Made by a program: the position numbers and the translations under genes
Assembly: GCA_022705425.1 (NCBI GenBank)
Contig: JAKJEM010000001.1
Span: 104,253 to 168,252, forward strand
Source of the DNA: Planctomycetota bacterium
Lineage (GTDB): Bacteria > Planctomycetota > Brocadiia > CAIUPP01
DNA length: 64,000 nt
Direction: 5' to 3'
Shown here: one piece after another, positions 23,405 to 43,510 of the stretch
How positions within the stretch are numbered: the stretch's first letter is position 1
Layout: every line of letters begins with the position of its first letter
The notes under the pieces: model-generated
The model's input: the letters and a program-made list of their open reading frames with translations, nothing else
What the model was told of the DNA's origin: nothing
The model's database searches: none

Positions 23405-26400
23405 ATGACCGCCGCCGTTGCGCCTGCGCTGTTGTTGCCTGAAGTCGGTCAAGCCGTCATCATACGCAACCGTCTCGCCCTGGTGCGGACCGTCGAGCCG
23501 TACGACACGCGCGACCGCACCGGCCGCCTGAATCTCGTGGAAGTCGAGTACCTCGACGACTTCCGCCACCCCTTGAGCGATCACGTGCTCTGGGAGATGG
23601 AACCCCAGAAGCAAATCATCGGCAAGACCTCGCTGCCCGGAGTGGATGCCAACCGCCCCGATCACCCCGCCGCCCTGCAAGCCTTCGTCAATGCCCACCG
23701 CTGGACGCGCCTGAACCGTCTGCGCGGCAGCGAGAGCGTCGAGGAAGAGCCCCTTCTGGGGGTGTGGAACTCCGCCATTCAAGTCCACTCCTACCAGTTG
23801 GAGCCGGTCCTGCGCGCGCTCGACATGCCCCGCGTCAGCCTCATGCTCGCCGACGGCGTGGGCTTGGGCAAGACCATCCAGGCCGGGCTGGTCCTCGAAG
23901 AACTGCTCCTCCGCCGTCGCATCCGGCGCATCCTGGTCCTGTGCCCGGCCATGCTCCAGCGCCAGTGGCAACTGGAGCTTCGGCGCAAGTTCAGCCTGGA
24001 GTTCCAGATCGTTGATTCCGACTCCACCTTCGACATGCGCCGCCGCCTGGGGATAGACACTAACCCCTGGAAAGCCCACCCCCGCATCATCACCTCGATG
24101 GACTACCTGCGCATGCCCGACGTGTTGCAGCAGTTCCTGCAGGCCTCCGGGGCCGATGCCATCCCCGGCAGCGGGCGCGTCGCACCCCACGGCCCGTGGG
24201 ACCTGCTCATTGTGGACGAGGCACACCACTTCGCCCCGCAGAGCGGCGGGCGGGCCAGCCAGCGCACACGCATGCTCCGGGAAATCCGCTTCCTCTTCGA
24301 GCACCGCATCTTCGCCTCCGCCACGCCCCACAACGGCAAGACCGTCTGCTTTACCGGCCTTCTGGAACTCCTCGATCCCGTCCGTTTCCAGATGACCGTC
24401 GAGATGTCGGAGCGCGATCACAGGCACCTGGGCGAAGTCCGCGTGCGGCGGCTCAAGGACGACATCAACAAGGTCTCGCTCCAGCCGCCCTTCGCCGAGC
24501 AACTCCCGCCGGTCGAACTGCCCCTGGCCCTCAACCCGAAGGAAGCCGCCCTTTATGACGCGCTGCGCGAGTACCGCCACAAGGGCGAGGCGGAATTGGC
24601 CTCCGGCAGCCCTTCCGAACGCTGGCTGGGCCGCTTCATCCACTCGTTGTTAACCAAGCGCCTCCTGTCCTGTCCCTATGCCTTTGCCCGCACCTGGTGG
24701 CGGCATGTCGAAGGCGGATCGGGGTCGGTGACCGGCGACCTGGCGGTCATGGCGCGCATCTCGGCCGAGAAGGCCGAGGACGAAGCGCGCAATGACGAGG
24801 AAAAGGCCGCCTATGAGGAAGACGCCGCGCGCTACGGCGGGGCCTGGCTGCGCGCCAGGGGCAAGGCGCTGGCCGCCTCGCAGTCGAAACTCGCCGCCGC
24901 CCTCGAAGCGATGGGCATGGGCCGCAACGCCATCGAGGGCGAGGCCCATCTGGCCGCCCTTGCGCGCAAGTCCGACTCCAAGACCGACGCCCTCGTGCGC
25001 TGGATCAAGGCCCACCTCTTCCAGAACGGCGCGCTGCGCGACGATGAGCGCCTCATCGTCTTCACCGAGTACAAGGAAACGCTCCTTTACCTGACCGAGC
25101 GCCTCCAGCAGGAGGGCTTCGACGAGAACACCCTGCGCCTGCTCTACGGCGGCATGGACACAGGCGATTTCGAGCAGGTCAAGAACGAGTTCGAGGACCG
25201 CGACGCCCCGGTGCGGCTGCTCCTGGCCACCGACGCCGCCTCCGAAGGCATCAACTTGCAGGACTGGTGCCGCTGGATCATCCATTACGATATCCCGTGG
25301 TCGCCCTCGAAAATCCTCCAGCGCAACGGCCGCGTCTCGCGCCACGGCCAGGTGCGCGACGTGAGCATCCATTACTTCCGCTGCAATCAGGAAGAGGACC
25401 TGGAGTTCCTCTGCAAGGTCGCCCAGAAGGTGGATCAGATCCGCGACGACCTCGGCAGCGTCGAGCGCGTCTTCAGCGCCGCCATCGAAAGCCACTTCAG
25501 CGGGCGCAAGGTCCGCCAGAGCGACCTCGACCTGTGGGTCGAGCAGGAATTGGCCGCCAGCCAGGAAAAGAAGGACCTCGGCCGTAACGCCGAGGAGGAC
25601 ACGCGCCGCCTCACCGAGCGCGCCAGCCGATTGCTGGAAGTCACCGATGCGCGTCTGCGCATCTCGCCCGAGGCGCTCGTGGGCCTGCTGGAAACCGCCC
25701 TGCGCGTCGAGGGCGGCGGCGCGCTCGAACCCATCCCCAACAGGCCCGGTTTTTACCGTCTGGCCCCGCCCCCGCGCTGGGAGCGCCTGGTCAGGGAAAC
25801 GCTCACCGTCGGCCCGCGCACCGACCGCATGGAACTCGTCTTCGACTCCGCCCTCGTGGAAGAGGAACACAACCACCGGCGCGTCCTCAAGCTCAAGAAG
25901 CACCAGGTCCTCATGCGCTTGAGCCATCCCGTCATGCGCCAGGCCATGGCCGCGCTCTGTCGCCAGTTGCATGACCCGGCCTCGACAGAGCCCATCTTCC
26001 GCTGGACGGTGGCGGCACTGCACAAGCCGAACTTCGAGGCGCTGATGGCCTTCTTCTACACCGTCACCGCCGTCAACGACCTCCGCGAACCCCTCCACGA
26101 CGAGGTGATGACGGAGGTCTTCCGCGTCGAAGGCGACCGGCTCGCCCCCGTGGAGCGCTCCTTCCGCGAGATGGTCCTCCACGCCGACCTCCTGGCCGTC
26201 CGCTCGCCGGAGCGGCGCGACAAGCTCTGGCAGACCTTCCGCCTGCGCTGGCCGCGCCATCGCGAGGCGCTGGAGCGGTTCCAGAAGGCCCAGGAGAAAG
26301 GTTGGATGGCCGATTTGCAGAAGCGCGCCGATGCCGCCTGCAAGCGCGAGACCGACAGCGCCGCGCAGAGCTACGACTCGCGCCTCAGGGAACTGGCCGA

Positions 26401-26704
26401 GCGCACGCGCGAGCGCGAGATGCGCAGACTGGCCGAGTCGCTCCTTTCCGCCAAAGCCGCCACGATGCAGGCCGCCATCTTCCCCGAGCTGCAGGAGGAC
26501 AAGAAGGCCGGCCTCCAGGCCCTCGAAGAGCAGATCGGCATCCTGAGCCGCGACGTGGAGCTCACGCGCGCGCTCCTCCTGCGCGAGCGCGACTACCGCC
26601 TCAAGCAGCTCCTGCCCGCCCGCTTTGCCCTGCGCGAGGTGCGCGTGCTGCCCCTGGCCGTTGAGTACATCGTCCCGGCCATGCCGGAGGATACCCGTTT
26701 GTGA
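23405..26704 (+). CDS. SNF2-family helicase, DISARM DrmD-like
   Basis: AGGAGC RBS. Walker A LADGVGLGKTIQ. DEAHH box (LLIVDEAHHF). SNF2_N layout. Helicase-C region LIVFTEYKETL...LLATDAASEGINLQ...QRNGRVSRHGQ. Confidence 0.75.
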   Translation: MTAAVAPALLLPEVGQAVIIRNRLALVRTVEPYDTRDRTGRLNLVEVEYLDDFRHPLSDHVLWEMEPQKQIIGKTSLPGVDANRPDHPAALQAFVNAHRWTRLNRLRGSESVEEEPLLGVWNSAIQVHSYQLEPVLRALDMPRVSLMLADGVGLGKTIQAGLVLEELLLRRRIRRILVLCPAMLQRQWQLELRRKFSLEFQIVDSDSTFDMRRRLGIDTNPWKAHPRIITSMDYLRMPDVLQQFLQASGADAIPGSGRVAPHGPWDLLIVDEAHHFAPQSGGRASQRTRMLREIRFLFEHRIFASATPHNGKTVCFTGLLELLDPVRFQMTVEMSERDHRHLGEVRVRRLKDDINKVSLQPPFAEQLPPVELPLALNPKEAALYDALREYRHKGEAELASGSPSERWLGRFIHSLLTKRLLSCPYAFARTWWRHVEGGSGSVTGDLAVMARISAEKAEDEARNDEEKAAYEEDAARYGGAWLRARGKALAASQSKLAAALEAMGMGRNAIEGEAHLAALARKSDSKTDALVRWIKAHLFQNGALRDDERLIVFTEYKETLLYLTERLQQEGFDENTLRLLYGGMDTGDFEQVKNEFEDRDAPVRLLLATDAASEGINLQDWCRWIIHYDIPWSPSKILQRNGRVSRHGQVRDVSIHYFRCNQEEDLEFLCKVAQKVDQIRDDLGSVERVFSAAIESHFSGRKVRQSDLDLWVEQELAASQEKKDLGRNAEEDTRRLTERASRLLEVTDARLRISPEALVGLLETALRVEGGGALEPIPNRPGFYRLAPPPRWERLVRETLTVGPRTDRMELVFDSALVEEEHNHRRVLKLKKHQVLMRLSHPVMRQAMAALCRQLHDPASTEPIFRWTVAALHKPNFEALMAFFYTVTAVNDLREPLHDEVMTEVFRVEGDRLAPVERSFREMVLHADLLAVRSPERRDKLWQTFRLRWPRHREALERFQKAQEKGWMADLQKRADAACKRETDSAAQSYDSRLRELAERTREREMRRLAESLLSAKAATMQAAIFPELQEDKKAGLQALEEQIGILSRDVELTRALLLRERDYRLKQLLPARFALREVRVLPLAVEYIVPAMPEDTRL

Positions 26705-27087: not shown

Positions 27088-30000
27088 GTGAACAAGAAGA
27101 ACGAAACGCTCGGCACCCTCCATGCGTGGTGGTCGCGCCTGCGCCATCAGGGGCTGCTGCTCTCGCCGGTCGTCTTCCTCGACGACGACCGCTTCCCGTG
27201 GCTTTCGGACGCCCCCGCCGCCCCGGACTGGAACGCCCGGCGCAAGCTCAAAGACGCCTGGACGCGCTTTCTCGCCCAGGTGGACAGCGGCGACGAGCGC
27301 GCCCCCGAGGAAGACGCCGTCCTGACCTGGACCGATGCCCTCACCGGCTTCCTCGGCATCCCGTCAGGCCAGGTGGCCAGGCAGGGCCACATCCCCGGCA
27401 GGCTCACCGCCGCGATCCGCATCGGCTCGCGCACCGAGACGATCCGCCCGCACCGCGTCGTCTTTGCCGACGCCGCGCAGGAGGTCCCCGCCCTTCTGGT
27501 CATGGCCGATACCTCGCCCCACGTGGGCCGGGGACGCGGCCGCACCGCCTATGCGCGCTTTGTCGAGCTCCTGCGCGCCACGGGCCGGCGTCTGGGTCTG
27601 TTGACGAACGGCTCGCAGTTCCGGCTGATCTACGCCGGGTTGGATTTCGAGTCCTGGTGCGAATGGGACGCCGACCGCTGGTTCACCGATGCCGAAGGGG
27701 CCGAGGAACTGAATGGGCTGCGCCGGTTGATCGGCCCGAAGGCCCTGGAAGCCTCGAAAGACGGCGTGCCGGCGCTTCTGGCGGCCGTGGAAGATTCGCG
27801 CAAGCGCCAGGCCGATCTCTCCAACGTCCTGCGCGAGAATGTCCGCCAGGCGGTCGAACTGCTCCTGGAGGAGGTCTCCGCCGCCCATCGCACCCACCCG
27901 GCGCTCTTCAGGGAGTTGGCCGCCGGCCCCGACGGCACATCGCTCCATGACGCCGAAGCGCAGGAGGCCATGCTCCAGGCCGGCGTGCGCGTGGTGATGC
28001 GCCTGGTTGTCTGTCTCTTTGCCGAGAGCCGCAAGCTCCTGCCGGTGGACGATCCCATCTACGCCCAATCCTACGGCGTGCGCGCCCTCTACGAGCTCCT
28101 CGACAGCGCCGCGCGCGCCGAGGGCGGCACGCGCGCTCTCGCCGACCGGCGCATGGCCTGGCCCAGGCTCATGGCCCTCTTCCGCCTCGTCCACGCCGGA
28201 TCGGCCCACGGCAGCTTCCCCGTGCCCGCCTACGGCGGCGCGCTCTTCCGTCCGGGTGAAGACGCCCACGAGGACCCCGTCTCGCGCGCACTGTACCTCC
28301 TGGAGCACGCCGTCCCCGTGCGCGACGAGGCGATCCTGCTCGTCCTGCAAAAGCTCCTCCGCGGGCCGCTGCCGGTCGTGCGCGGGCGGACCCGGACCTT
28401 CGTCGAAGGCCCCGTGGACTACACCAACCTGCGCACGGAGTTCATCGGCCTGATCTACGAAGGCCTGCTCGACTACCGCCTCAAGCGCGCCTCGGAGGAG
28501 TCCGGCCCGCAGGTCTTCCTCAACATCGGACGCGAACCCGTCCTGCCGCTGCGCCGTCTCGAGGCGATGCTCCACACCGACCGCAACGGCCTGAAGGACC
28601 TCCTGACCACGCTGCGCAAGGAGAAGGTCGCCGCGTCGGTCTCCTCCGATGAAGAACCCGAAGCCGAGGAAGCCGATTCGTCCGACGCGGCCGAGCCGCC
28701 CGATTCGGAGGAACCCGTCCTCCAGGACGCCTCGCCCGTCGTCACCACCACCAGCGCCCCCGACTACCTCGACGCCGACGCCCGCGCCCGGCAGTGGGCG
28801 CGCGAGGCGGCGCTGCTGCTGGGGCTTGTCGGCCGGAAGCGAAAGGGCGAGCCGGAGACGGAGTACCGCAAGCGCGTGGACGACGAGGCCGACCGCCTGA
28901 TCAAGCGCGTCGTGCCGGTGGGCGATTTCTACCTCGTGCGCGCGGGCAATACGCGCAAGGGCACCGGCACCTTCTACACCCGCCCGCAACTGGCCGTGCC
29001 CACCGCCCACCGCACCTTGCAGCCCCTCTGCTACGACAAAGCCCCCGACGGCCATCTCATCCCGAAGACGCCGCAGGAAATCCTCGCCCTCAAGGTCTGC
29101 GATCCCGCCTGCGGCAGCGCCTCCTTCCTCGTGGCCGCCCTGCATTATCTGACCGACGCGCTTTACGCCGCCCTCGTCGTCCACGCCGATATCGAAAACC
29201 CGCGCCGGGCCGGACAGGCCACCCTCCCCCTCGGCCGCAGGCGCACCGGCAAGGGCGAGGAGGAACTCCTGCCCTTCCCGCCCGACGACCCGCAGCGCGG
29301 CGAAAGCTTCACCGACGTGGTCAAGGCCCTCCTGCGCCGTCACGTGGTCGAACGCTGCATCTACGGCGTGGACATCAACCCGCTGGCGGTCGAGTTCGCG
29401 CGCGTGTCCCTCTGGATCGAAACCTTCGACAAGGACCTGCCCTTCTCCTTCCTCGACCACAAGGTCAAGGTCGGCAACGCCCTCGTCGGCTGCTGGCTGC
29501 GCCACATGCTCGACTATCCCCTCAAGGCCTGGGAGCGCAACGGCGGCGACGACCCCGACGCCCGGACCAGCGGCCCGCGCACCGAGCGCATCGAGACCTT
29601 CCTGAAAGGCCCCGTGGAAGCCAACGGCCGCCGCAGCGGCGACGGCATCATCAAACAGGAAATGCGCCGGATCATCGCCGGCCACTTCGCCGGGCATCTG
29701 TTCGGCGGGGAGGCCACGCCGGAGCAACTCCTCGTCGGCGCGCGCAAGTTCCACGAGACGATGCATGAAGTGTCGGTGCGTTCTCCCGAGCTGAAGGAGA
29801 AGATGTACGCGCACTTCGAGCACGGCCCGGCCCTCCAGCGCCTCAAACGCGCCATGGACGAATGGTGCGCCGTCTGGTTCTGGCCCATGGACGAGGAATC
29901 GGCCAGGCACGCGCCCACGCCGGAAACCTTCCACGCCTCCGATGTGGCCCATCCGCCGTCGTCCGGTGTGGCGCAGCCGCCGTTGTCCGGTGTGGCGCAG

Positions 30001-32364
30001 CCGCCCTCGGCTGCGGAATCCAGAGAGCAGACAGTGCCCTTGTCCGATGTGGCGCATCCGCCGTTGTCCGGTGTGGCGCATCCGCCGTTGTCCGATGTGG
30101 CGCAGCCGCCCTCGGCTGCGGAATCCAGAGAGCAGACCGCCTCACAGCCGGGGGCGGCTGTGCCACACACGGCCACGCCACAGCCGGGGGCGGCTGTGCC
30201 ACACACGACCCCCCGCGAAAGCCTCATCGCCCGCCTTCGCCGCGACCTCCGTTTCTTCCACTGGGAACTCGAATTCCCCGACGTCTTCACCCCTGCGCGC
30301 AGCGGCTTCGACGCGGTCCTCGGCAACCCGCCGTGGGAGACAGTTCAGCAGGAGAGCATGGAGTTTTTCTCGGAGTTTGATCCGCTCTACAGGACCTATG
30401 ACAAGCAGTCAGCACTCCGAAGACAGCAGGAGCTCTTCCGCGCCCTGCCTGAAGTGCGACGCTTGTGGCTCGACTATTGCGGGCGGTTCGCCTCCATGAA
30501 TAACTGGGTCCGCAATGCAGCGAATCCGTTCAACATGGTCTTGGATCGAGGCAGGAAGGGTGAACAGCTTGCCAGCGACTGGGCGTGTGAAAGGAAGAAG
30601 CGCATCGGCTATGCGCTGCCCGATGTACCCTTCCGTTGGCAGGGTTCGGGCAAGAATTACACTTACAAACTCTTCCTTGAGATGTCTCACGCCTTGATCC
30701 ACGACACGGGCCGCCTCGGCCTGATCGTTCCCTCCGGCCTTTACACCGACGCCGGCACCCGGGACCTGCGCACCCTCTTCCTGGAGCAGGGCACGTGGGA
30801 GTGGCTCTTCAGCTTCGAGAACCGGCGCAAGATTTTCGACATTGACAGCCGCTTCAAGTTCGCCCCGACGATTGTGGATCGGCGGCGCACCGGCGCGCCG
30901 ATGCAGGCCGCCTTCATGGTCCACGACGTCGCCGCCTGGGAGCGTCCCGACCCGCCCGTCTTCCCCTTCGACACGAGCCTCATCCCCCTCTTCTCCCCGC
31001 GCAGCAAATCCCTGCCCGAAGTCCGCACCCGGCGCGACCTCGACATCTGCCGCAAGATCTACGAGCACTCCATCCGCATCGGCGATAACGCCCCCGGATG
31101 GGAGATCACCTACGCCCAAGAATTCAACATGACGAGTGACTCCCGGCTCTTCCCCCCGCGCGAGAAGTGGGAGGCGAAGGGCTACAAGCCGGATGTCTTC
31201 GGGCGGTGGATCGGGCCGGAGGGGGATGTGGCGCTGCCGTTGTATCAGGGGACCATGCTTGGCCAACTGAACTTCAGTGAGCAAGGATTTGCATCCGGTA
31301 GCGGCCGAAGCAATCACTGGGAGATCATTCCCTGTGATAGATCGATAGTCCTGCCCAAGTACATGATCGGTGCCTCAGCCGCGCCCAGCAAGTCAAAGAT
31401 GTCTTGCGCGAAACTGGCCTTTCGTGACATCACCAACGCCACGAACGAACGAACATTCATAGGTGCAGTCCTGTGCGGTCTGCCCTGCGGGAACACCGCG
31501 CCCGTTCTCGTACCCAAGCAGCGGCCTCTCCGGAGAGCACTCCTCTTCTCTGCCGCGCTTTGCACCTTGACGAGTGACTACGCGGCGCGAATGAGAATTG
31601 GCGGAACGCATCTGAACTTCTTCATCGCGCAGGACATGCCAGTGCCGTTCGGGAACATCCCACAGGGTGCGGAAGTCTGTCTGGTGAGAATCGCCGCGTG
31701 CCTCAACTTCATCCACCGCCGTTTCGCCCCCGAATGGCTGCGGCTTCGCGCGCTCTATCCGGAGTTGGGGAAGCGGGAGTGGAAGTACTGGTGGGCGGTG
31801 ACGGAGGCGGACCGGCTGCGGCTGCGGGTGGAGATTGACGCGCTGTGCGCGGAGCTGTACGGGCTGGAGCCCGACGACTTCGACTGGATCGTGCGCGACG
31901 ACCCGAGCGACCCGAAGGGCTTCTGGCGCGTGGACAAGGAGCTGCCCTACCGCGAGCGCCTCACCGGCCTCGCCGCCGCCGCCTTCCGCGCCCTGAAGGC
32001 CGGCCAATGGTCCGCCGACTCCGCCGCCGCCCTTTCCAACGACGACTTCTTTGCCCTTCTCGGCATCCCCGAACTCACCAGCGAGCGCGCCGCAAAGGCC
32101 AAGGGCCTCTCCGAGCCGTTGATCCGCAAGCGCAAGGGCTGCCACCTCTGGCAGCCCGAAAAGTTCCCCGCCGCCGACCCGCGCCACGGCTGGACCTGGT
32201 CCCACTGCCACGCCGACGCCGTCGCGCTGCTGGGGAGCGAGGAGGCGGTGAAGGATTACGTTGAGGGCAAGACGCCGCCGGTGGCCGAGCCGGAAAAAGC
32301 CCGTAAGACCAAGCGGAAAGCCAAGATACACCCCGATCAGGCCGGGCTCTTCCGGGAGTCCTAG
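27088..32364 (+). CDS. N6-adenine DNA methyltransferase (gamma-class, Eco57I/PglX/DrmMI-like), 1758 aa
   Basis: Motif I is VCDPACGSASFLVAALHYL. Motif IV is VLGNPPWE. The N-terminal region is PglX/type-IIL-like. A C-terminal TaqI_C-like region is present. An in-frame tandem-repeat insert lies between motifs I and IV. Confidence 0.8.
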   Translation: MNKKNETLGTLHAWWSRLRHQGLLLSPVVFLDDDRFPWLSDAPAAPDWNARRKLKDAWTRFLAQVDSGDERAPEEDAVLTWTDALTGFLGIPSGQVARQGHIPGRLTAAIRIGSRTETIRPHRVVFADAAQEVPALLVMADTSPHVGRGRGRTAYARFVELLRATGRRLGLLTNGSQFRLIYAGLDFESWCEWDADRWFTDAEGAEELNGLRRLIGPKALEASKDGVPALLAAVEDSRKRQADLSNVLRENVRQAVELLLEEVSAAHRTHPALFRELAAGPDGTSLHDAEAQEAMLQAGVRVVMRLVVCLFAESRKLLPVDDPIYAQSYGVRALYELLDSAARAEGGTRALADRRMAWPRLMALFRLVHAGSAHGSFPVPAYGGALFRPGEDAHEDPVSRALYLLEHAVPVRDEAILLVLQKLLRGPLPVVRGRTRTFVEGPVDYTNLRTEFIGLIYEGLLDYRLKRASEESGPQVFLNIGREPVLPLRRLEAMLHTDRNGLKDLLTTLRKEKVAASVSSDEEPEAEEADSSDAAEPPDSEEPVLQDASPVVTTTSAPDYLDADARARQWAREAALLLGLVGRKRKGEPETEYRKRVDDEADRLIKRVVPVGDFYLVRAGNTRKGTGTFYTRPQLAVPTAHRTLQPLCYDKAPDGHLIPKTPQEILALKVCDPACGSASFLVAALHYLTDALYAALVVHADIENPRRAGQATLPLGRRRTGKGEEELLPFPPDDPQRGESFTDVVKALLRRHVVERCIYGVDINPLAVEFARVSLWIETFDKDLPFSFLDHKVKVGNALVGCWLRHMLDYPLKAWERNGGDDPDARTSGPRTERIETFLKGPVEANGRRSGDGIIKQEMRRIIAGHFAGHLFGGEATPEQLLVGARKFHETMHEVSVRSPELKEKMYAHFEHGPALQRLKRAMDEWCAVWFWPMDEESARHAPTPETFHASDVAHPPSSGVAQPPLSGVAQPPSAAESREQTVPLSDVAHPPLSGVAHPPLSDVAQPPSAAESREQTASQPGAAVPHTATPQPGAAVPHTTPRESLIARLRRDLRFFHWELEFPDVFTPARSGFDAVLGNPPWETVQQESMEFFSEFDPLYRTYDKQSALRRQQELFRALPEVRRLWLDYCGRFASMNNWVRNAANPFNMVLDRGRKGEQLASDWACERKKRIGYALPDVPFRWQGSGKNYTYKLFLEMSHALIHDTGRLGLIVPSGLYTDAGTRDLRTLFLEQGTWEWLFSFENRRKIFDIDSRFKFAPTIVDRRRTGAPMQAAFMVHDVAAWERPDPPVFPFDTSLIPLFSPRSKSLPEVRTRRDLDICRKIYEHSIRIGDNAPGWEITYAQEFNMTSDSRLFPPREKWEAKGYKPDVFGRWIGPEGDVALPLYQGTMLGQLNFSEQGFASGSGRSNHWEIIPCDRSIVLPKYMIGASAAPSKSKMSCAKLAFRDITNATNERTFIGAVLCGLPCGNTAPVLVPKQRPLRRALLFSAALCTLTSDYAARMRIGGTHLNFFIAQDMPVPFGNIPQGAEVCLVRIAACLNFIHRRFAPEWLRLRALYPELGKREWKYWWAVTEADRLRLRVEIDALCAELYGLEPDDFDWIVRDDPSDPKGFWRVDKELPYRERLTGLAAAAFRALKAGQWSADSAAALSNDDFFALLGIPELTSERAAKAKGLSEPLIRKRKGCHLWQPEKFPAADPRHGWTWSHCHADAVALLGSEEAVKDYVEGKTPPVAEPEKARKTKRKAKIHPDQAGLFRES
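29938..30210 (+). repeat. in-frame tandem repeat block (21-nt units plus larger ~36-90-nt units) inside the methyltransferase gene
   Basis: Repeated tccgRtgtggcgcaKccgccg units, the duplicated cagccgccctcggctgcggaatccagagagcaga block, and the duplicated cagccgggggcggctgtgccacacacg block. They encode SDVAHPP/SGVAQPP/.../PQPGAAVPHT repeats. Confidence 0.8.
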
Positions 32365-32453: not shown

Positions 32454-32834
32454 ATGCCGGTGGCCAGTCGAGCACAGGTAGCTGCGTTCCTTCACGTCTT
32501 CAAGAGCTGCTTCAGGCTCGATCGCTTCTCTGTCAAAGACAGACAGAAGAACCGGCAAGCCCTCATTGCCCTGGCGATGGACCCTGCGGAGCGCCGGGAT
32601 GCGCTTCTCGGTCTCCAGCCGGACGATTACGTTGCCGGGCCCAAGCCGGACGATACGGACGACACCAGGGAAGTCTGGGAGTTCGGCAGGACCATCGGGA
32701 CGACAGAGGTTTACATCAAAGTGCGCGTGGTCCAGGATCCGAAGAAGAAGAATGTCCACCACGCGGTGGTGTGGTCATTCCATCCGGCCGAGTTCCGAAT
32801 GAAGTATCCGCTGAGAGGAGGGAGTGGGTCATGA
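32454..32834 (+). CDS. mqsR: MqsR-family toxin (type II TA ribonuclease toxin, RelE/MqsR fold)
   Basis: The C-terminus ...EVYIKVRVVQDPKKKNVHHAVVWSFHPAE matches the MqsR C-terminal signature (QVYLKITVIHD...LIVSFKEK). The toxin-first gene order matches mqsRA. GC is low. Confidence 0.55.
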   Translation: MPVASRAQVAAFLHVFKSCFRLDRFSVKDRQKNRQALIALAMDPAERRDALLGLQPDDYVAGPKPDDTDDTREVWEFGRTIGTTEVYIKVRVVQDPKKKNVHHAVVWSFHPAEFRMKYPLRGGSGS

Positions 32835-33853
32835 AGGTTTTCTGCCCCACCTGTGAGGAGTACCGGGAGACCCGGACGGTTGAACGGAAGGAATCGTACA
32901 AGGTGCGCGGCCGGAAGGTCATCGTGCCGGTGACCGTCACGGCGTGCGTGAAGTGCGGGGAGGCCGTGGGAGGCGACGAGAAGGATAAGGAGGTGCTGGC
33001 GGCTGTCTATGCCGAATACCGGCGTCAGAATGATCTCCTGTCCCCCGATCAGATACAGGAAATCCGCCGCCGCTATCGTCTGAGCCAGCGGTCCTTCGCC
33101 GTGCTGCTCGGAATGAGTGAGGCGACGATCAACCGGTATGAACAGGGCGCGCTACAGGAGCCGTCCCATGACACCGCCATCCGCGCTTGCCAAGACCCGG
33201 CATTCGTTCGAGGACTCCTTGAAAGGCGCGGCAACCAGTTGACCGAGTGGCAACGGAAACGGACGGAGGACGCCCTTGCGGGGCAGGCAGTGCCTGAGTC
33301 TCGCTGGGTGGACATCGCAGGCAACGTCAATCTGCTGGCCATGAGCAATGAAGTATCCGTTCAGACCGGGTTCCGCCGGTTCGACTTTCGGCGTTTTGCA
33401 GCCGTGGTCAACTGGTTCTGCTGCGACTTCGGCGGCGTCTCCAGGACGGTTATCAACAAGCTGCTCTTCTATGCGGACTTCTTGAATTTCAAGACGGCGA
33501 CTGTATCGCTGACGGGGAGTCCCTACCGGAGGCTCCAATACGGCCCGGTACCGTCCGATTACGACTTCCTGCTGGGCCAGATGGAGGCACAGGGTCTCAT
33601 CGTGTGCAGGGAAGTCGGCTATCCCACCGGCTATACAGGATTCGAATACAAGCCGGGCTCCCGAGCCGGCGCTGTTGAGGTGACGTTCACCGATCACGAG
33701 AAAAGGGTGCTTGCCAGAGTTGCGAAGGCATTCAAGGGTATGACGGCAAAGGCCATCTCGGACCGGTCACATCGGGAATCGGCTTGGCGAAATACTCCCG
33801 ACAAGCAGTTGATCTCCTACCAGGAGGCTTCCACGCTGTCTCTGAATCTGTGA
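32831..33853 (+). CDS. antitoxin: MqsA-like (N-terminal Zn-ribbon plus XRE HTH) fused to a C-terminal Panacea (DUF4065/SocA-like) domain
   Basis: ATGA overlap with the toxin stop. MKVFCPTCEEY...CVKCGE (CxxC...CxxC). Then ...LSQRSFAVLLGMSEATINRYEQG (HTH_XRE). Then ...VINKLLFYADFLNF...YRRLQYGPVPSDYDFLLGQ (Panacea/DUF4065 signature). Confidence 0.6.
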   Translation: MKVFCPTCEEYRETRTVERKESYKVRGRKVIVPVTVTACVKCGEAVGGDEKDKEVLAAVYAEYRRQNDLLSPDQIQEIRRRYRLSQRSFAVLLGMSEATINRYEQGALQEPSHDTAIRACQDPAFVRGLLERRGNQLTEWQRKRTEDALAGQAVPESRWVDIAGNVNLLAMSNEVSVQTGFRRFDFRRFAAVVNWFCCDFGGVSRTVINKLLFYADFLNFKTATVSLTGSPYRRLQYGPVPSDYDFLLGQMEAQGLIVCREVGYPTGYTGFEYKPGSRAGAVEVTFTDHEKRVLARVAKAFKGMTAKAISDRSHRESAWRNTPDKQLISYQEASTLSLNL

Positions 33854-33865: not shown

Positions 33866-36800
33866 GTGCCGATTAATCCTGTCCATTTCGCCCACAACGT
33901 CTGCGACGAATTCCTGCGGTACATCTTCTCCGCCTTCCCGCTGACCGACCCCGACCTGGCGGCGCAGGCGCGGAAGATGTTCGAGCGGCCCTCGTCGCTG
34001 GGCATTCCGCTGGTGCAGGGACCGTATGTGTCGCTGTCCAGGGCCTTTGCCCAGGGCGACCCGGTCGCCGATCTCGCGGCGCGCGGGATGTTGCATCCGG
34101 TCATGCCGGGGCTGATCGGCTACCCCACCCTGTGGGTTCATCAGCAGCGCGTCTTTGAAGCGGTGCGCCGGGGCGAGCACGTGCTGGTGGCTACGGGCAC
34201 CGGCTCGGGCAAGACGGAGGCCTTTCTCCACCCCATTGTGGACGACCTGCTGCGCCAGCGCGATCAGGGGGTGACGGCGGGCCTGTCGGCGGTGCTGGTC
34301 TATCCCATGAACGCCCTGGCCAACGACCAGTTGGAGCGCCTGCGCGACATGCTGGCGGGGACAGGCGTCACCTTCGGACAGTGGGTGGGCACCACGCCGG
34401 ACAAGGAGCGGGACGTCGCCATCGAGCAATTCCCGTCCTCCTCCCGGCAGGCCTATCTGGCGGAGCGCAAGAAGCGCAAGGACGCGGCGCTCGGCGAGAA
34501 CCGTGCGGCGCGGCCCATCGCGCCGCTGGAGGAGTGCCGCAGCGAGGAGGATATTCGCGCGCGGAAGCCGCGCATCCTCATCACGAACTACCGCCAGCTT
34601 GAGATTCTGACCACGCGTTGGCCGGATGTCTCCCTCTTCGCCGGGGCACCGCTGAAGTACCTGGTCTTCGACGAGGCGCACACCTACGAAGGCGCGGTCG
34701 GGGCCGAGGTCGCCTGTCTCATCCGGCGCGTCCGCGCCCTGGCGGGCAAGACTCCGGATGAAGTGACCTGCATCGGCACTTCCGCCACCCTGGCCGACCC
34801 CGACAAGGCCAAGGGCGACCATGAGGCGGCGGCCAAGCGTTTCGCCTCGCGGTTTTTCGGCGTGGACGAGGACAAGGTCACCCTCGTGGGCGAATCGTAC
34901 GTGGCGCGCGAGTGGCCTGGGGGGCGCATCAAGACGGCCCCGCCGCTGGGCGATGGAATGGAACGGGTGAACCGGCTCCTCAAGGCCATGTCCGATCCGG
35001 TGGATCTCCCCGCGCTCAAGGCCGTGATCGAGGAACTGACCGGCCAGATGATTGACCTGGGCGAGGACTGGGCGCGATCGCTCTTCCAGCACCTCCTGGC
35101 CAATGAGTACGTCTATCAGACCACGCAGGTTCTGAGCGAACCGAAGCTTCTCTCCGACGCCGCGTGGCAGACCTCGCAACGCCTGGCCCCGGACCGACTG
35201 GAGCGGGGCGCGCGCGCCGACGGCGAACTGCTCGCCTATTTGCTCCTGGGCGCAGCCGCCCGGCAGGAGGGCGAGGCGCTTCTGCGCCCGAAGGTGCATT
35301 TCTTCATCCGCGGCCTGGATGAGATGACCGTGGCACTCGACGGCGACCCCGACGCCCTTCAGGTGCGGCTCTTCATGTCCCTGGCCGAAGCGCGCGGAGC
35401 CTGCCCCAACCGCCGGGACGACGCCTTCCTCCCCGTCCTCACCTGCCGCAACTGCGGCCAGCACTTCTTCGAGCGCCACTTTCAGAACCTCGAACTCTCC
35501 GCCGGTTCCCAGGGCGACCTGAAGGACTTTGCCTGCGGCAACGCCACGGAGGGCGGCGATGGGCAATCCAATGCCGTCTGGCCCACCGCACCGGAGGGCG
35601 GGGGAACGCGCCTGGTGATGACCAACCGCCTTCTGGAGGAGGCCGACGGGCAGGGGGGAGCCAAGACGGCGCGATGGCCCCGTGGACATGTCTGCCGTCA
35701 GTGCGGCGCGTTGCACCGCAATCCCGGCGACGCCTGCAGCGCCGACGGCTGCGGCCACAAGGCCCCGCTCCTGCCGCTGTTGGCCTTCGGCAAGGAACTG
35801 AGTTCCTGCCCGTCCTGCGGCACACTGAGTTTTCGCATCGGCGGACGGGTGATCGAGCCGGCCCGAAGAGTTCAGGCGGTCACCGTCGCCGACGTGCATA
35901 TTCTCGCCCAGGCGATGATCAACGCCGCGCCCAGGGACCATAAGAAGCTCATCATCTTCGCCGACAGCCGCCAGGATGCGGCCTTCCAGGCGGGCTGGAT
36001 GCAGGACCACGCCCGGCGCATCCGCCTGCGCCACATGATGCACGATGCCATCACCAACGCGCCGGGACCGGTCAAGCTCGACGAGATCGTAGATCGCCTC
36101 ATGGGAGTCTTCCGCAAGGACCGCAGCCTGATTGACGCGCTGCTTCCGGAGTTGACCGGCGAGGAGGCTCAGGCGGTCTTCGGGCACAACGTCTGGGTAC
36201 CCGTTCACCGCGCGCTGCGGTACATGGTCTTGCGCGAGTTCACGACCGGCGTGCGCCGCACCGACTGCCTGGAGGCCATGGGCCTGGCGCAGGTCTCTTA
36301 CGAGAGACTGACGCCGGAGAATCCGGACGTGCAGGAATGGGCTTCGGTTGTCGGCATCACTCCCGCCGATGCGGTCAACGCCATCTCCCTCATCCTGGAC
36401 ATCTGGCGACGCAACCGAATCCTCTTCGTGGAGAAGGAGCCGATCTTCTCTCAGTTCCACGCCCGGGACAATGAGTACATCCAGGTCGGCTTGTTGGCGC
36501 TGCGCGACTTCCGCCCGGAAGGTCTTCTCCTGAAGGCCGGTGAGCAGGACAAGTACGCGCGCGGCGTGAAGGCTCCGCGCGGACAGTCGGCGGTGCAGGC
36601 GCTCCTCAAGAAGTGGACGCCGGACTCCGGCAAGGTGGACCTCGACGCCGCCATCGGTCTGCTTTGGGAGTTATTGACGGAACGTATCAAGCTCCTGTCC
36701 AAGGTCGTCTTGCGTTCACAGAAGGACACCCCGCTCGGGGGCGACGTATGGCAGGTCAATGCCGATACGGTGCGTGTCGCGAAGAGCAACCAACGCGCGC

Positions 36801-39238
36801 GCTGCAAGACCTGTCAGCGCATCACGACGCGCCCGGCTCCCCGGTCAGCCTGCACGCGTCATCACTGCCCCGGCAGTACCGTGACGCTGGAGCCGGACAA
36901 GGACAACTATGACGTGTGGCTTATGCGGCGGCCATTCGTCATGGTCAGCGCCGAGGAACACACGGCCCAGGTACCCGGCGAGGTTCGCCTCAAGGTCGAG
37001 CAGGATTTCAAGTCGCGCAAGGGCCGGACCAACTGCCTTGTGGCCACCCCGACGCTGGAAATGGGCGTCAACATCGGCGACCTGGACATGGTCCTCATGC
37101 GCAACGTTCCGCCGCGCGCGAGCAATTACTGGCAGCGTGCCGGACGCGCGGGCCGCGAAGAGCACATGGCGGTCGTCGTGACGTACTGCCGGCGCTCGCC
37201 GCATGACCGCTATTTCTTTGAAGACCCGCTGCGCCTGCTGGGTGGGGCCATTGAAGCGCCGGTGTTCAACCTCCGCAACCCCCTCATGGTCGGCAAGCAC
37301 ATCCGATCAGCCATCTTGTCGGAACTGCTCCTGCGAGCGCGTGGCAACGGCCCCGATGCGCGGAAGATTCATGACGTCCTTGTCCCGTGCTTCCCGACCT
37401 TCATTCGCGACTACCTCCTCGACGAGCAGAACCGCTTCCGCGAGACGCCCCCCGGCGTGGCATCGCTTCAGCATCTCCTCGACACCATGAAAGACCCCCT
37501 GACAGAGCGGCTGCTTCAACTCTTCGCTCAACATTGGCCCGAAGATGCCCGGGAACTCACCACGCGCGCAGCCATTGTTCAGATCGTGGAGGAGACGGCG
37601 GCCGCGCTCGACGGTGTTCTGGGTCGCCTGCATCGCCGTCTGGCGTGGGCGCTGAAGACTCAAGCCGATATCCACCGCAAGAAGGAGGCGGGCCTGATTG
37701 ACCGCGAGGAAGATCAGTTGTTGCGTCGTTGCGACGACTACATCAATCGGATCATGCGCCGCGACAGTTCCACATACACCCTGACGGTGCTGGGCGTGGA
37801 GGGCTTCCTGCCCGGCTACGGCGTCTATGAAGGCGGCGTGGTGGCTTCGGCGAGGGCCGGATTTGCCCGCCATCCAGGCTCACGCTCCTTTGAACTATCG
37901 CGAAGCAACGTCGTGGCTCTTCGCGAGTTCGTGCCGGGCAATCGCCTCTACGCCAATCGGGGCACCTTCTACGTATCGCGCTTCCACCTGGCTGCCGATG
38001 AATCGAGCAAACTGCGCACCTTGCGCGTTGACCCCGAGAAGGGCACGGTCAGTGACCACACCGGCAACGCCGCTTACGGCCAGTCCGCCGCACAGATCAT
38101 TGATGCGTTGCCGCTGACGGACCTGGACCTGACGCACGAGAGCCGGATCAGCGAAGACGAGAGCCTGCGTTTTTCCATGCCCGTGGAGATCGTCGGTCGC
38201 CTGCGCCGCCGATGCCGGGGCGGAAAGGCCTTCAAGATTGGCCAGGTGGAGGCCCACCACCTCAAAGGGCAGGGCATCGAGTTGGTCAACCTGGGCGAAA
38301 CCGGACGCGTCAAACGCAAGGAACTTGGCCACTGGATCTGCTCGATCTGCGGGGCTGCCAAGACGCCCTATGCTGTTCCGGCTGAAATCAATCACTTCAT
38401 CCAAGGGCACAAGGACCGTTGCGGTCGTGAACCCGTCCGCCTGGCTCTGACCGCCCAAGCCGACGTTGACATGATCCAGTTCCATGCCATGGAGAACCCG
38501 GCCAAGGGAATCAACATCGGCGAAGCGCTACGCACCGCCGCAGCGCGCGTCTTGGACATGGGGCCGGAGGACCTCCAGTTGCTCGTGGTGCAGAAGCCCG
38601 ATGACACACTCGACCTCCTGCTCTACGACCCCATGCCCGGTGGTTCGGGCCTGCTCGACCAGATGCTTGGGCGCTGGCCGGAGATTATCACTGCGGCCAG
38701 GAACCTTCTGGCCAACTGCCCACTGGCTTGCGAGGCCGCGTGCTATTGCTGCCTGAAGACTTTCCGCAACCAATCGCACCACGAAGCGCTTGACCGCCAC
38801 AAGGCTTTGGAGTATCTCCAAGCGCTTGACCACACGCCGCAGAGCTATCGTGACATCGGCCCGCAGTTTGAGGAAGAATCGGCCGGTCAAGGGACGCCGT
38901 CGAATACGGCGGAGGCCCGCCTGGAGCGCATTCTGCTCGACCATCACTTCCCCGTGGGGAAGGCCCGCCGGCGGATTACGGCGAGCGCGGGGCTCTCTAC
39001 GGTGCCTGACTGGCTCCACGAGCCGTCCAAGACCGCTGTGTACCTCGACGGCATGAGTCGCAACCTGCACGGCGATCCGAAGACGGCCCAGCGGGATCAA
39101 CTGATCCGGCAGATGCTGGAACTGGACGGGTACAAAGTTGTAGTTGTTCAGTCACGTGACTTGGATGATCCGGAGGCACTGCGACGACACCTGAAGAACA
39201 TCGCTCAGGCTTTGGGCCGAGGGGATCTGATCAGTTGA
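33866..39238 (+). CDS. 1790-aa DEAD/DEAH-box helicase with Cys-rich (DUF1998-like) region and C-terminal DUF559/Vsr-like endonuclease domain; DISARM DrmA/DrmB-like fusion (or DruE-like)
   Basis: GTG start. Walker A VATGTGSGKTEAF. DEAH box (LVFDEAHTYEG). HELICc ...LVATPTLEMGVNIGDLDMVLMRNVPPRASNYWQRAGRAGR. Multiple CxxC clusters (CRQCGALH..., CPSCGTL, CSICGAAK, CPLACEAACYCC). C-terminal ...SKTAVYLDGMSRNLHGDPKTAQRDQLIRQMLELDGYKVVVV resembles DUF559 (AVxxDGxxH...D..RD..L...G). Confidence 0.65.
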   Translation: MPINPVHFAHNVCDEFLRYIFSAFPLTDPDLAAQARKMFERPSSLGIPLVQGPYVSLSRAFAQGDPVADLAARGMLHPVMPGLIGYPTLWVHQQRVFEAVRRGEHVLVATGTGSGKTEAFLHPIVDDLLRQRDQGVTAGLSAVLVYPMNALANDQLERLRDMLAGTGVTFGQWVGTTPDKERDVAIEQFPSSSRQAYLAERKKRKDAALGENRAARPIAPLEECRSEEDIRARKPRILITNYRQLEILTTRWPDVSLFAGAPLKYLVFDEAHTYEGAVGAEVACLIRRVRALAGKTPDEVTCIGTSATLADPDKAKGDHEAAAKRFASRFFGVDEDKVTLVGESYVAREWPGGRIKTAPPLGDGMERVNRLLKAMSDPVDLPALKAVIEELTGQMIDLGEDWARSLFQHLLANEYVYQTTQVLSEPKLLSDAAWQTSQRLAPDRLERGARADGELLAYLLLGAAARQEGEALLRPKVHFFIRGLDEMTVALDGDPDALQVRLFMSLAEARGACPNRRDDAFLPVLTCRNCGQHFFERHFQNLELSAGSQGDLKDFACGNATEGGDGQSNAVWPTAPEGGGTRLVMTNRLLEEADGQGGAKTARWPRGHVCRQCGALHRNPGDACSADGCGHKAPLLPLLAFGKELSSCPSCGTLSFRIGGRVIEPARRVQAVTVADVHILAQAMINAAPRDHKKLIIFADSRQDAAFQAGWMQDHARRIRLRHMMHDAITNAPGPVKLDEIVDRLMGVFRKDRSLIDALLPELTGEEAQAVFGHNVWVPVHRALRYMVLREFTTGVRRTDCLEAMGLAQVSYERLTPENPDVQEWASVVGITPADAVNAISLILDIWRRNRILFVEKEPIFSQFHARDNEYIQVGLLALRDFRPEGLLLKAGEQDKYARGVKAPRGQSAVQALLKKWTPDSGKVDLDAAIGLLWELLTERIKLLSKVVLRSQKDTPLGGDVWQVNADTVRVAKSNQRARCKTCQRITTRPAPRSACTRHHCPGSTVTLEPDKDNYDVWLMRRPFVMVSAEEHTAQVPGEVRLKVEQDFKSRKGRTNCLVATPTLEMGVNIGDLDMVLMRNVPPRASNYWQRAGRAGREEHMAVVVTYCRRSPHDRYFFEDPLRLLGGAIEAPVFNLRNPLMVGKHIRSAILSELLLRARGNGPDARKIHDVLVPCFPTFIRDYLLDEQNRFRETPPGVASLQHLLDTMKDPLTERLLQLFAQHWPEDARELTTRAAIVQIVEETAAALDGVLGRLHRRLAWALKTQADIHRKKEAGLIDREEDQLLRRCDDYINRIMRRDSSTYTLTVLGVEGFLPGYGVYEGGVVASARAGFARHPGSRSFELSRSNVVALREFVPGNRLYANRGTFYVSRFHLAADESSKLRTLRVDPEKGTVSDHTGNAAYGQSAAQIIDALPLTDLDLTHESRISEDESLRFSMPVEIVGRLRRRCRGGKAFKIGQVEAHHLKGQGIELVNLGETGRVKRKELGHWICSICGAAKTPYAVPAEINHFIQGHKDRCGREPVRLALTAQADVDMIQFHAMENPAKGINIGEALRTAAARVLDMGPEDLQLLVVQKPDDTLDLLLYDPMPGGSGLLDQMLGRWPEIITAARNLLANCPLACEAACYCCLKTFRNQSHHEALDRHKALEYLQALDHTPQSYRDIGPQFEEESAGQGTPSNTAEARLERILLDHHFPVGKARRRITASAGLSTVPDWLHEPSKTAVYLDGMSRNLHGDPKTAQRDQLIRQMLELDGYKVVVVQSRDLDDPEALRRHLKNIAQALGRGDLIS

Positions 39239-41127: not shown

Positions 41128-43510
41128 AGTGCTCCAATCCTTTTTTCGTCAGGTCAATGCTTCCTACTCCATAACCGCGTCAAAAAAAGCGAACTGAGCA
41201 CGGATGATGTGGGTTTGAGCTTCCAAGAGAGCCATGGGAGAGCTCTTGGTTGTGTTCATTTCTTGCCCCCTGTTAGAAGGATGAGGAGAAGTACAAGACA
41301 GCCCACTGCCACGTATAGTCCAATCACTTCCCACTCCCTTCTTTTCTTGAGAGGGCTTCGTTGGAGCCTCGACCGCATCAGTCTCAATCCCTTTTTCGTC
41401 AGGTCAATGCTTCCTAGATGCAAGTGTGTTGCGGGTGGCCTAAGGTTCACTATGGAGGACGGTTTCAATCCCTTTTTCGTCAGGTCAATGCTTCCTACGG
41501 ATGGCGGTGGACGGGGTTCCGGGCCTCACCTTCTCGAGTTTCAATCCCTTTTTCGTCAGGTCAATGCTTCCTACGGTCGTGGTGTTCCCGGCCCACATGG
41601 GGTTTGATTGCCAGGTTTCAATCCCTTTTTCGTCAGGTCAATGCTTCCTACGATTGAGATTCGACGTCGGTATGGCCCCAAGGTTTATCGGGTTTCAATC
41701 CCTTTTTCGTCAGGTCAATGCTTCCTACTGCTGAACTGGCCAAGGCCGCGACGCAAGGTGTCAAGTTTCAATCCCTTTTTCGTCAGGTCAATGCTTCCTA
41801 CTGATGACGTGCCGGTGTGTGAGCGTGACACTGTGGGCGCGTTTCAATCCCTTTTTCGTCAGGTCAATGCTTCCTACCCACGCGGGCGACTTGCAGGCGA
41901 TACCTGGTGGAGCGATGAAGTGTTTCAATCCCTTTTTCGTCAGGTCAATGCTTCCTACTCAAGCGGAACAGACAGAGCGCGAGAAAGCGGCTGTCAAGGC
42001 GTTTCAATCCCTTTTTCGTCAGGTCAATGCTTCCTACGCGAGATTGAAGCCAGTGACTTCCGCTCCTCAGTCGGTTCCGAGTTTCAATCCCTTTTTCGTC
42101 AGGTCAATGCTTCCTACTTGCCATACATTTTCTTCGACGCGCGCACCGGCTCCTTCTCGTTTCAATCCCTTTTTCGTCAGGTCAATGCTTCCTACGCGTC
42201 GAGATTGAGGCGACTAACGCCGACATTCGACGTGGTTTCAATCCCTTTTTCGTCAGGTCAATGCTTCCTACGTCCGGGAAGTGTGCATCATGCGTATTGT
42301 GGCATGGAAGTTTCAATCCCTTTTTCGTCAGGTCAATGCTTCCTACTGAAGATTATGCGCGATGTGCTTACAATCAAGGCTAAGTTTCAATCCCTTTTTC
42401 GTCAGGTCAATGCTTCCTACGCGGTGACGAGAGGTTACGAGTACAAGGAAGTCGAGGGTTTCAATCCCTTTTTCGTCAGGTCAATGCTTCCTACGTATCT
42501 CCGCTACCGTGCGGAGGACGGTGATACCGAGGCGTTTCAATCCCTTTTTCGTCAGGTCAATGCTTCCTACGGGGGTGTCCATGCCCCCGCTGACGGTCAT
42601 GTACGACGGGTTTCAATCCCTTTTTCGTCAGGTCAATGCTTCCTACGCACCTGTCTGTGCGGACAGGAAGCCCACACGATGTTCCACAAGGTTTCAATCC
42701 CTTTTTCGTCAGGTCAATGCTTCCTACAAGGCTATTTCGTATGGAGGATCGCACAGGACGGCATGAAAGTTTCAATCCCTTTTTCGTCAGGTCAATGCTT
42801 CCTACACAGACAGACGCAGTCGAGGAACCACAGGCGTCTTTTATAGTTTCAATCCCTTTTTCGTCAGGTCAATGCTTCCTACCAGGAAGAACCTTATCGA
42901 AAAAATCAAGGGCTTCTCTTGTTTCAATCCCTTTTTCGTCAGGTCAATGCTTCCTACCAAGAAAATCTCAGAGGCTACTGGGTTCCCCGTTGTCAATGTT
43001 TCAATCCCTTTTTCGTCAGGTCAATGCTTCCTACGGGGGATGGCGCGATAGTTACGAACGGTGGAGCAGCGGCACGTTTCAATCCCTTTTTCGTCAGGTC
43101 AATGCTTCCTACCAGGTTATGACTGCGCCGCCGTTGATGCAGTCAATGAAGAGTTTCAATCCCTTTTTCGTCAGGTCAATGCTTCCTACGGGGTGGTACG
43201 GAGGCCCCGACATCCCAGCCCTGTTCCCCACACCGTTTCAATCCCTTTTTCGTCAGGTCAATGCTTCCTACGGAGCAACCGGGAGTCCCCCTGGCGAGTC
43301 TGCGCGACGGCGCGTTTCAATCCCTTTTTCGTCAGGTCAATGCTTCCTACCGCAGGGATCACAGTAGGAGGGTGAGACGATGGCATATCGTTTCAATCCC
43401 TTTTTCGTCAGGTCAATGCTTCCTACGACTCCGACGTGGGGAGATCGCATGGCTCCGATGGGAGGACGTTGACGTTTCAATCCCTTTTTCGTCAGGTCAA
43501 TGCTTCCTAC
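41128..43510 (-). CRISPR. CRISPR array, about 30 units of a 37-bp repeat GTTTCAATCCCTTTTTCGTCAGGTCAATGCTTCCTAC (plus strand); transcribed from the minus strand
   Basis: There are 28 canonical repeats from 41463 to 43510 with unique 38-45-nt spacers, plus two degenerate distal repeats (41128-41166, 41380-41416). The minus-strand reading ends in ...GGGATTGAAAC, a typical 8-nt 5'-handle ATTGAAAC. cas1-cas2 and the leader are at the high-coordinate end. Confidence 0.95.

Follow-up and report, generated by a model that had tools for sequence, protein, structure and literature searches.

Repetitive extragenic palindromic (REP) sequences tagged by a GTAG head were described by Di Nocera et al. in 2013 (BMC Genomics 14:522, PMC3733652) in eight phyla, including Planctomycetes and Verrucomicrobia. 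The families GTAG-17 to GTAG-20 occur in Opitutus terrae, where GTGG heads are found (GTAG-20 is GTGG-headed). The same study reported REPs located in frame within genes, among them an N-6 DNA methylase of O. terrae (Oter_3011, aa 444–496) and several ASPIC/UnbV proteins. These intragenic clusters encode up to 43–82 aa, and the authors argued against functional constraint. Here, a repeat block inside a DNA methyltransferase gene of a Planctomycetota bacterium is analysed (assembly GCA_022705425.1, contig JAKJEM010000001.1, positions 104,253–168,252 of the forward strand; this whole stretch of 64,000 nucleotides is called the window). The block is very probably a recent, tolerated insertion of a REP or REPIN (an inverted REP pair with a short spacer that forms one long hairpin), amplified by in-frame duplications.

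Different views exist of how REPs and their REP-associated tyrosine transposases (RAYTs) are inherited. For REPIN–RAYT systems, inheritance is mostly vertical, according to the RAREFAN preprint. The analysis by Quentin et al. in 2018 (PMC6006769) found tnpA_REP to be patchily distributed, in keeping with horizontal transfer, as well as GTGG-enriched subsets. The spread across phyla of the REP family described below bears on this debate between vertical and horizontal inheritance.

Two further kinds of repeats within genes serve as references. The Rickettsia palindromic elements (RPEs) are reportedly AT-rich, roughly 100–150 bp long and specific to Rickettsia. Contingency loci in restriction-modification genes, such as phase-variable mod and hsdS, consist of repeat units of 1–5 nt that shift the reading frame.

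Structure of the Repeat Block

The repeats are in frame, as the first-pass annotation of this DNA had claimed, and far beyond chance. The insert comprises 276 nt, that is, 92 codons, and its short unit was found six times (at 29938, 29962, 29986, 30043, 30067 and 30091), against 0.02 expected. The annotation had counted five or six such units and had assigned them a period of 21 nt; the actual period is 24 nt, encoding the 8-aa sequence S[DG]VA[HQ]PP[SL]. Tandem Repeats Finder and a repeat finder confirm the repeats, with 3.0 and 3.1 copies at this period. The annotation had also listed two longer blocks of ~36 and ~90 nt. The first holds, with a 36-nt unit present twice at 30143–30214 (97% identity), whereas the second is a block with a period of 105 nt, 95 nt of which match, in 1.9 copies at 29938–30137 (95–96% identity). 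The core of the long unit has four matches, against none expected by chance. It had gone unnoticed that each 36-nt unit is the 24-nt unit with its tail in reverse complement, so the region is palindromic as well as tandem.

The insert is composed of four complete copies of a 25-nt element, two on each strand, and four truncated copies in tandem. The element reads T-GTGG-CACAGCCG-CCCY-CGGCTGTG, in which the GT[AG]G head precedes a hairpin of 8 bp with a 4-nt loop. Its parts are arranged as follows.

29938–29985, plus strand: two truncated 24-nt units, A1 and A2 (GTGG head, 5' half-stem and first loop bases)
29992–30015, plus strand: complete REP unit in A3, GTGG-CGCAGCCG-CCCT-CGGCTGCG, a variant whose stem has one compensated base pair
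30016–30042, plus strand: spacer or tail (GAATCCAGAGAGCAGACAGTGCCCTTG), within the 105-nt duplicated block
30043–30090, plus strand: two truncated 24-nt units, A4 and A5
30097–30120, plus strand: complete REP unit in A6, a variant identical to A3
30121–30142, plus strand: spacer between plus- and minus-strand REPs, the loop of the inner REPIN-like hairpin
30143–30166, minus strand: complete canonical REP unit B1, GTGG-CACAGCCG-CCCC-CGGCTGTG, pairing with A6
30179–30202, minus strand: complete canonical REP unit B2, pairing with A3 to form the outer hairpin

All four complete units carry the GTGG head. Relative to the 24-nt canonical sequence, the minus-strand units have one difference and the plus-strand units two, which compensate each other. 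The hairpins are nested, with the arms of A6 and B1 (26-nt gap) lying inside those of A3 and B2 (161-nt gap); the cluster thus contains the inverted REP pair, short spacer and single long hairpin of a REPIN. The predicted folding is strong both as DNA (−92 kcal/mol, z = −5.4) and as RNA (−172.6 kcal/mol over 301 nt, z = −6.5). The REP unit is free of stop codons in all six frames, and the entire insert has one stop across all six.

The REP Family in Other Genomes

An exact scan with the 22-nt core GTGGCRCAGCCGCCCYCGGCTG, covering one genome per species, detected at least 120 stretches in about 70 assemblies; assembly and phylum counts are a tally from record titles. Among the matches listed, about 68 loci are from Planctomycetota, 21 from Acidobacteriota, 9 from Chloroflexota, 8 from Hydrogenedentota, 4 from Verrucomicrobiota and 3 from Sumerlaeota, the rest being single loci in several other groups. 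The sources include megabase contigs and the complete genome CP050848. Individual genomes harbour several loci, the minimum number being 10 in DATFDL01, 8 in CAYGWP01, 7 in JAJRTN01 and 3 in CP050848.

Conservation of the unit is sharply bounded, from −1 (T) to +23, with random flanks. When hairpin matches were collected with the head left unconstrained, 204 of the 222 carried GTGG and 7 carried GTAG. Units occur as singles and as inverted doublets, 34% of them having an inverted partner at most 70 nt away. Among 140 copies outside the ascertaining pattern, changes in the stem were compensated (0–14 per pair) about as often as they broke the pairing (5–15), while the reversed-sequence control for this set gave only 7 matches. 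As judged from sequence, the unit is a REP, with a GT[AG]G head, a palindrome, and both single and inverted-dimer forms. The Rfam scan of 29700–30500 returned only sub-threshold matches to generic, miRNA-like hairpins, and there is no Rfam model for the family; a full-text literature search for the unit sequence gave no match.

The core was also found in 22 further matches in viral contigs. REP doublets lie between phage-like genes in one of them (L140, at 2899–2960 and 5091–5155) and in 21 other IMG/VR contigs (within L124–L145). These contigs are a possible route for the spread of the family between phyla.

Direct tandem arrays of the REP were observed in a Dehalococcoidia metagenome-assembled genome (MAG) with a period of 64 nt (L083, ~7400–7540) and in a Planctomycetaceae MAG with a period of 30 nt (L023, 5437–5560). 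Upstream of a RAYT gene, four copies with a period of 27 nt make up a further REP array, which corresponds to the N-terminus of protein P0207. The formation of such arrays thus seems characteristic of the REP family.

A separate arrangement is seen in the Hydrogenedentota MAG JAJRTN01 (L020, L034, L051, L085, L090 and L116), where the unit recurs at '...TTCTTAT|GTGG...', with a second small hairpin, unlike the first, after it. Immediately behind the unit, an opposite-strand open reading frame (ORF) begins with '..KKW.I.THL..'; this arrangement suggests that the element is composite or that the members of a gene family have a 5' REP.

Association with RAYT Transposases

The REP family is associated with RAYT genes, as shown by the genes that it flanks at three loci. 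RAYT genes were found by tblastn, in which the initial query was an approximate consensus that served only as a lead, and were confirmed with Pfam and NCBIfam. At the first locus (L006), an ORF of 170 aa (683–1195) sits between unit arrays. At the second (L080), an ORF at 769–1272 starts 10 nt past an exact unit and has a degenerate inverted unit on its other side. Against the NCBIfam model REP_Tyr_transpos (cutoff 80), these proteins score 78.8 and 81.1 bits, respectively; against Pfam Y1_Tnp (cutoff 23), the L006 protein passes with 23.8 bits and the L080 protein falls below with 20.6. The two are 52% identical. The third locus (L162), in a Syntrophales genome, has a RAYT flanked by inverted variant units with a compensated stem.

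The L006 protein displays the DHVH, WQ and YIxxNP motifs of HUH/Y1 enzymes. It has more than 2,160 homologues, many of them labelled by JGI as 'REP element-mobilizing transposase RayT'. REP-encoded peptides are present in terminal extensions of the ORF in 33 of its 120 closest homologues; the usual pattern has AQPP[SP]A near the N-terminus and TA[EG]GGCA near the C-terminus, corresponding to the order REP(+)–rayT–REP(−). Inverted REP pairs separated by 250–3000 nt were also tried as traps for RAYT genes, and mostly enclosed unrelated genes (a membrane protein in L022, phage genes in L140).

The Insertion Site in the Methyltransferase

The position of the insert was determined in an alignment of 120 homologues of the methyltransferase, relative to its motifs I and IV.

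27088–32364, plus strand: host gene, gamma-class N6-adenine DNA methyltransferase (DrmMI-like or type IIG-like), 1758 aa, intact reading frame
29101–29130, plus strand: motif I (DPACGSASFL), aa 672–681
29938–30213, plus strand: lineage-specific insert of 276 nt, aa 951–1042, located in the alignment of 120 homologues
30325–30336, plus strand: motif IV (NPPW), aa 1080–1083

The first-pass annotation had placed motifs I and IV about 400 aa apart, and the measured spacing is indeed 408 aa. It had also proposed that an insertion of ~250 aa splits the catalytic core, taking ~150 aa as the usual distance. The homologues speak against that proposal, since nearly all of those with both motifs located by pattern (~100 of 119) have a spacing of 319 aa, made up of conserved, non-repetitive sequence. 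To judge from this alignment, the 319-aa spacer is conserved family architecture and not an insertion. The comparison with homologues that the annotation had called for thus located the insertion point and, at the same time, showed most of the long spacer to be common property; the extra sequence in the window protein amounts to only ~89–92 aa.

The insert takes the place of a variable loop of 5 aa between '...TPxTFH' and 'xxIxxRLxxxxxFFHWELEFPDVF...GNPPW', ~37 aa upstream of motif IV. This short loop is kept in 115 of the 120 homologues. In the closest of them (P0002, locus L001), which is 83% identical, the loop is plain, lacks the insert and contains nothing resembling a REP unit. The upstream genes at that locus are of the same kinds as in the window (PAS kinase, GGDEF, SNF2 and then the methyltransferase). 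Because so close a relative in the same kind of gene context lacks the insert, the insertion is recent. Its boundaries are those of the protein alignment, the MAFFT DNA alignments of the junctions being poor.

An AlphaFold2 model of aa 560–1330, built with 51 homologues, gives the insert a predicted local distance difference test (pLDDT) score of 26–41, as coil with no secondary structure, between helices that score above 90 on both sides. The insert is therefore predicted to be a disordered 92-aa loop rich in Pro, Ala, Ser and Gln, at a position that would tolerate extra length. Two other segments of low pLDDT (<50) were observed at aa 608–635 and 760–796 (model residues 49–76 and 201–237); they are non-repetitive and present in homologues, and the latter falls within the conserved stretch that separates motifs I and IV.

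The same loop carries unrelated material in other proteins of the family. In P0041 it contains an inverted-repeat element whose 30-nt (GGTGGTT)n arms show 93% complementarity, and similar elements occupy several other loops of this protein. Inserts of the 'PTTNHQPP' type are found at many loops in P0050, P0032, P0016 and P0023.

This second repeat family, (GGTGGTT)n/(AACCACC)n, encodes 'GGSWLVVG' or 'PTTNHQPP' and reaches up to ~8 loops of orthologous methyltransferases in other Planctomycetota. In the gene at 3001–8721 of L122, its arms are located at 4935–4996/5552–5611, 6331–6360/6426–6455, 8037–8074 and 8306–8392, with one pair bracketing ~555 nt.

In-Frame REP Copies in Unrelated Genes

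About 10% of the REP matches fall in long ORFs with coding-type base composition. Host genes with an in-frame REP unit or doublet, confirmed by Pfam, include essential housekeeping genes, namely those for the large chain of carbamoyl-phosphate synthase (CarB; L113, 2278–5919, minus strand), D-Ala-D-Ala ligase (Ddl; L026, 6911–7933, minus strand) and lipoate-protein ligase (L019, 3470–4366, minus strand). Further hosts confirmed in this way are a BcrAD/DUF2229 protein (L115) and PQQ, radical-SAM and GGDEF proteins. Also among the hosts is an FG-GAP/TPR/ASPIC protein (L110), in which two direct units and an inverted one form the insert 'DVAQPPSAV..DVAQPPSAV..AQPRA', in the same layout as in the window.

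Origin of the Insert and Alternative Explanations

The most probable course of events, by a wide measure of confidence, begins with a REP doublet (a REPIN with its heads outward) entering the short variable surface loop, presumably through the action of a RAYT on single-stranded DNA. The gene would have stayed open, given a unit that is stop-free in all six frames and a loop that accepts extra length. The cluster would then have grown by local duplications of 24, 105 and 36 nt, probably through slippage, with only the in-frame products surviving selection. To the activity of the methyltransferase, the insert most likely makes little or no difference.

Several observations weigh against this explanation. 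No other unit, allowing up to 6 mismatches, is present in the 64-kb window outside the insert, and the window contains no RAYT gene. No counterpart of the four truncated 24-nt units was seen at other loci, so the architecture is in part purely local. An RNA structure as stable as the one predicted inside the ORF could affect expression. Some phylum labels of the family rest on short MAG contigs, such as that of L080. Finally, transposition of the REP into the coding sequence by a RAYT, amplification by slippage and functional neutrality are inferred, as is any activity of the family in the source genome; what the data show is that the unit belongs to the REP family, that this family is associated with RAYTs, where the insert lies, that the frame is intact and that disorder is predicted.

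One alternative, considered very improbable, is that the block is a selected module, a disordered loop that aids defence by evading Ocr-like phage inhibitors, by tuning expression through an mRNA hairpin or by varying in length in frame. The gene does lie in a defence island, with DrmD-like and DruE-like helicases and CRISPR-Cas; the homologues P0032, P0041, P0093 and P0120 also have inserts exactly at this loop, and the DNA and RNA structures are strong. However, the inserts of the homologues derive from unrelated repeat families, which in P0041 and P0050 occupy many other loops too, and the great majority of the family keeps the loop at 5 aa. The anti-anti-restriction adaptation suggested in the first-pass annotation has found no specific support, the same REP being in frame in CarB, Ddl, lipoate ligase and other unrelated genes, housekeeping enzymes among them. 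Its suggestion of a contingency or phase-variation element is excluded as far as frameshifts are concerned, because each duplicated length (24, 36 or 105 nt) is divisible by 3 and the repeats lie inside the ORF, so no ON/OFF switching would follow. A metagenome scan with the truncated 24-nt unit for copy-number variants retrieved 15 unrelated single chance matches and no second copy of the insertion.

A purely local origin, in which replication slippage made a novel tandem repeat unrelated to mobile DNA, is considered very unlikely. The truncated units, like the 105- and 36-nt duplications, occur in tandem and are specific to this locus, and the lack of another REP copy in the window would be expected of such an origin. 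Nevertheless, the four complete units agree at 22–23 of 24 positions, covering head, stem and loop, with a family found dispersed over some seventy assemblies and flanking RAYTs, and the chance expectation of such matches is essentially zero. Slippage does not make inverted copies, and the 83%-identical homologue has nothing unit-like at the site. The idea of a tolerated slippage product, also raised in the first-pass annotation, is thus sound as to tolerance; the seed was in all probability a mobile REP or REPIN, and slippage or duplication would account for the later amplification only.

An assembly artefact, with repeats created or mis-collapsed by the assembler, has equally little probability, since repeats are a classic source of misassembly but this block is exactly 276 nt and in frame, its sub-repeats are told apart by point substitutions resolvable with short reads, its direct-then-inverted layout recurs in frame in an independent genome (L110), and tandem REP arrays adjoin RAYT genes elsewhere (P0207).

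Other identities were considered for the insert and rejected. As for a miniature inverted-repeat transposable element, no direct duplication at the junctions was seen on reading the sequence (the alignments being poor and without formal scoring), and the partner enzyme is of the Y1/HUH rather than the DDE type. By inspection only, there was nothing intein-like in the insert, no regular spacers of a CRISPR array, no R/L box consensus of an integron attC site, and no case for the variable region of a diversity-generating retroelement.

The REP insertion removes the tempting story of a phase-variable or specially adapted methyltransferase, and the appropriate annotation of the gene is an intact DrmMI-like enzyme whose surface loop carries a selfish-DNA passenger. 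In large high-GC proteins of Planctomycetota generally, repeat-rich 'insertions' should first be tested for an origin in REPs or other inverted repeats, the practical check being a GT[AG]G head along with inverted copies. This methyltransferase family would also have, in the loop at aa 950, a naturally validated permissive site for insertions or tags.

The Host Gene and Its Neighbourhood

The host ORF matches Pfam Eco57I (1.2e-20, 74.8 bits, cutoff 25.3) and MmeI_Mtase, and in PADLOC it is assigned to REase_MTase_IIG (5.5e-292) and DrmMI (7.5e-132). The protein has 590 homologues, usually of 1640–1700 aa, and its nearest solved folds are those of BREX PglX/BrxX, together with CamA and M.TaqI. 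The AdoMet-binding motif I precedes the catalytic motif IV (NPP[YFW]), the order of gamma-class N6-adenine methyltransferases, with DPACGS at aa 672 and NPPW at aa 1080.

Two helicase genes identified with PADLOC lie on either side of it.

23405–26704, plus strand: DrmD-like SNF2 helicase, directly upstream of the methyltransferase gene
33866–39238, plus strand: DruE/DrmA-like helicase of 1790 aa, downstream

Class 1 DISARM consists of drmMI together with drmD, drmA, drmB (DUF1998) and drmC, which encodes a phospholipase D (PLD) protein. The window may contain parts of such a system, with a strong DrmD match at 1.4e-204; the methyltransferase scores higher as REase_MTase_IIG than as DrmMI, and the large downstream helicase scores better on DruE models than on DrmA. 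No PLD gene (drmC) was identified. SNF2 helicase and methyltransferase are likewise paired at L001 and L122, two homologous loci.

A 360-aa ORF (32771–33853, plus strand) that lies between the genes for the methyltransferase and the large helicase combines an MqsA-type zinc-ribbon/helix-turn-helix antitoxin domain with a SocA/Panacea domain, and may be a regulator or a toxin–antitoxin component within the defence operon. Further downstream, a CRISPR array of 28 repeats of ~37 nt (GTTTCAATCCCTTTTTCGTCAGGTCAATGCTTCCTAC), spaced at 73–84 nt, occupies positions 41375–43524 and coincides with a low-GC stretch at 40–44 kb. It is adjoined by Cas1 at 43982–44980 on the minus strand (Pfam 1.2e-90). The CRISPR-Cas, methyltransferase and helicase genes together form a defence island.

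Comparison with Known Systems

The closest described elements are the GTAG-tagged REPs (PMC3733652). The window family shares with them the GT[AG]G head followed by a hairpin (6–13 bp in that study), the occurrence as singles, inverted dimers and clusters, and the in-frame location within genes of known proteins. It differs in its stem and loop (CACAGCCG-CCCY), in the truncated tandem units and in the size of the encoded segment, 92 aa against their maximum of 43–82. The REP sequence and its peptides are absent from the supplementary tables of that study.

The REP/REPIN–RAYT systems of E. coli and Pseudomonas (Nunvar 2010, PMC2817692; Bertels & Rainey 2011, PMC3116915; Ton-Hoang/Messing 2012, PMC3479197) are similar in their head-plus-hairpin units and in the inverted doublets that form a long hairpin. 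Their RAYT, a HUH/Y1 transposase that is usually single-copy there, is likewise flanked by inverted REPs (the REPtron). In contrast to the cluster in the window, the REPs of those systems are almost entirely extragenic.

The other two references resemble the cluster in part. RPEs are also palindromic selfish DNA that lies in frame in functional genes and encodes surface-exposed segments, but they are longer, unrelated in sequence and not known to have an associated RAYT. Contingency loci share the tandem repeats inside a methyltransferase gene, although units of 24, 36 and 105 nt, unlike theirs, cannot switch the gene off.

Intragenic in-frame REPs are thus already known, and what may be new is this REP family, its conservation across many phylum labels and the size of the 92-aa cluster. 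In contrast to the vertical picture, the same 25-nt unit occurs under many phylum-level labels, while the RAYTs of L006 and L080 have diverged to about half identity. On this basis, a near-identical 25-nt hairpin in more than 10 phylum labels and in viral contigs, set against RAYTs that are ~50–70% identical, together with an appreciable rate of colonisation (about 10% of matches) of permissive loops in coding genes, it can be tentatively suggested, with rather more doubt than confidence, that the REP/RAYT family is unusually promiscuous and conserved, spreading horizontally and remodelling proteins. If so, it would contrast with the lineage-bound, vertical picture drawn from Pseudomonas and enterobacteria, and the 92-aa cluster of the methyltransferase would be the largest protein-embedded REP array described.

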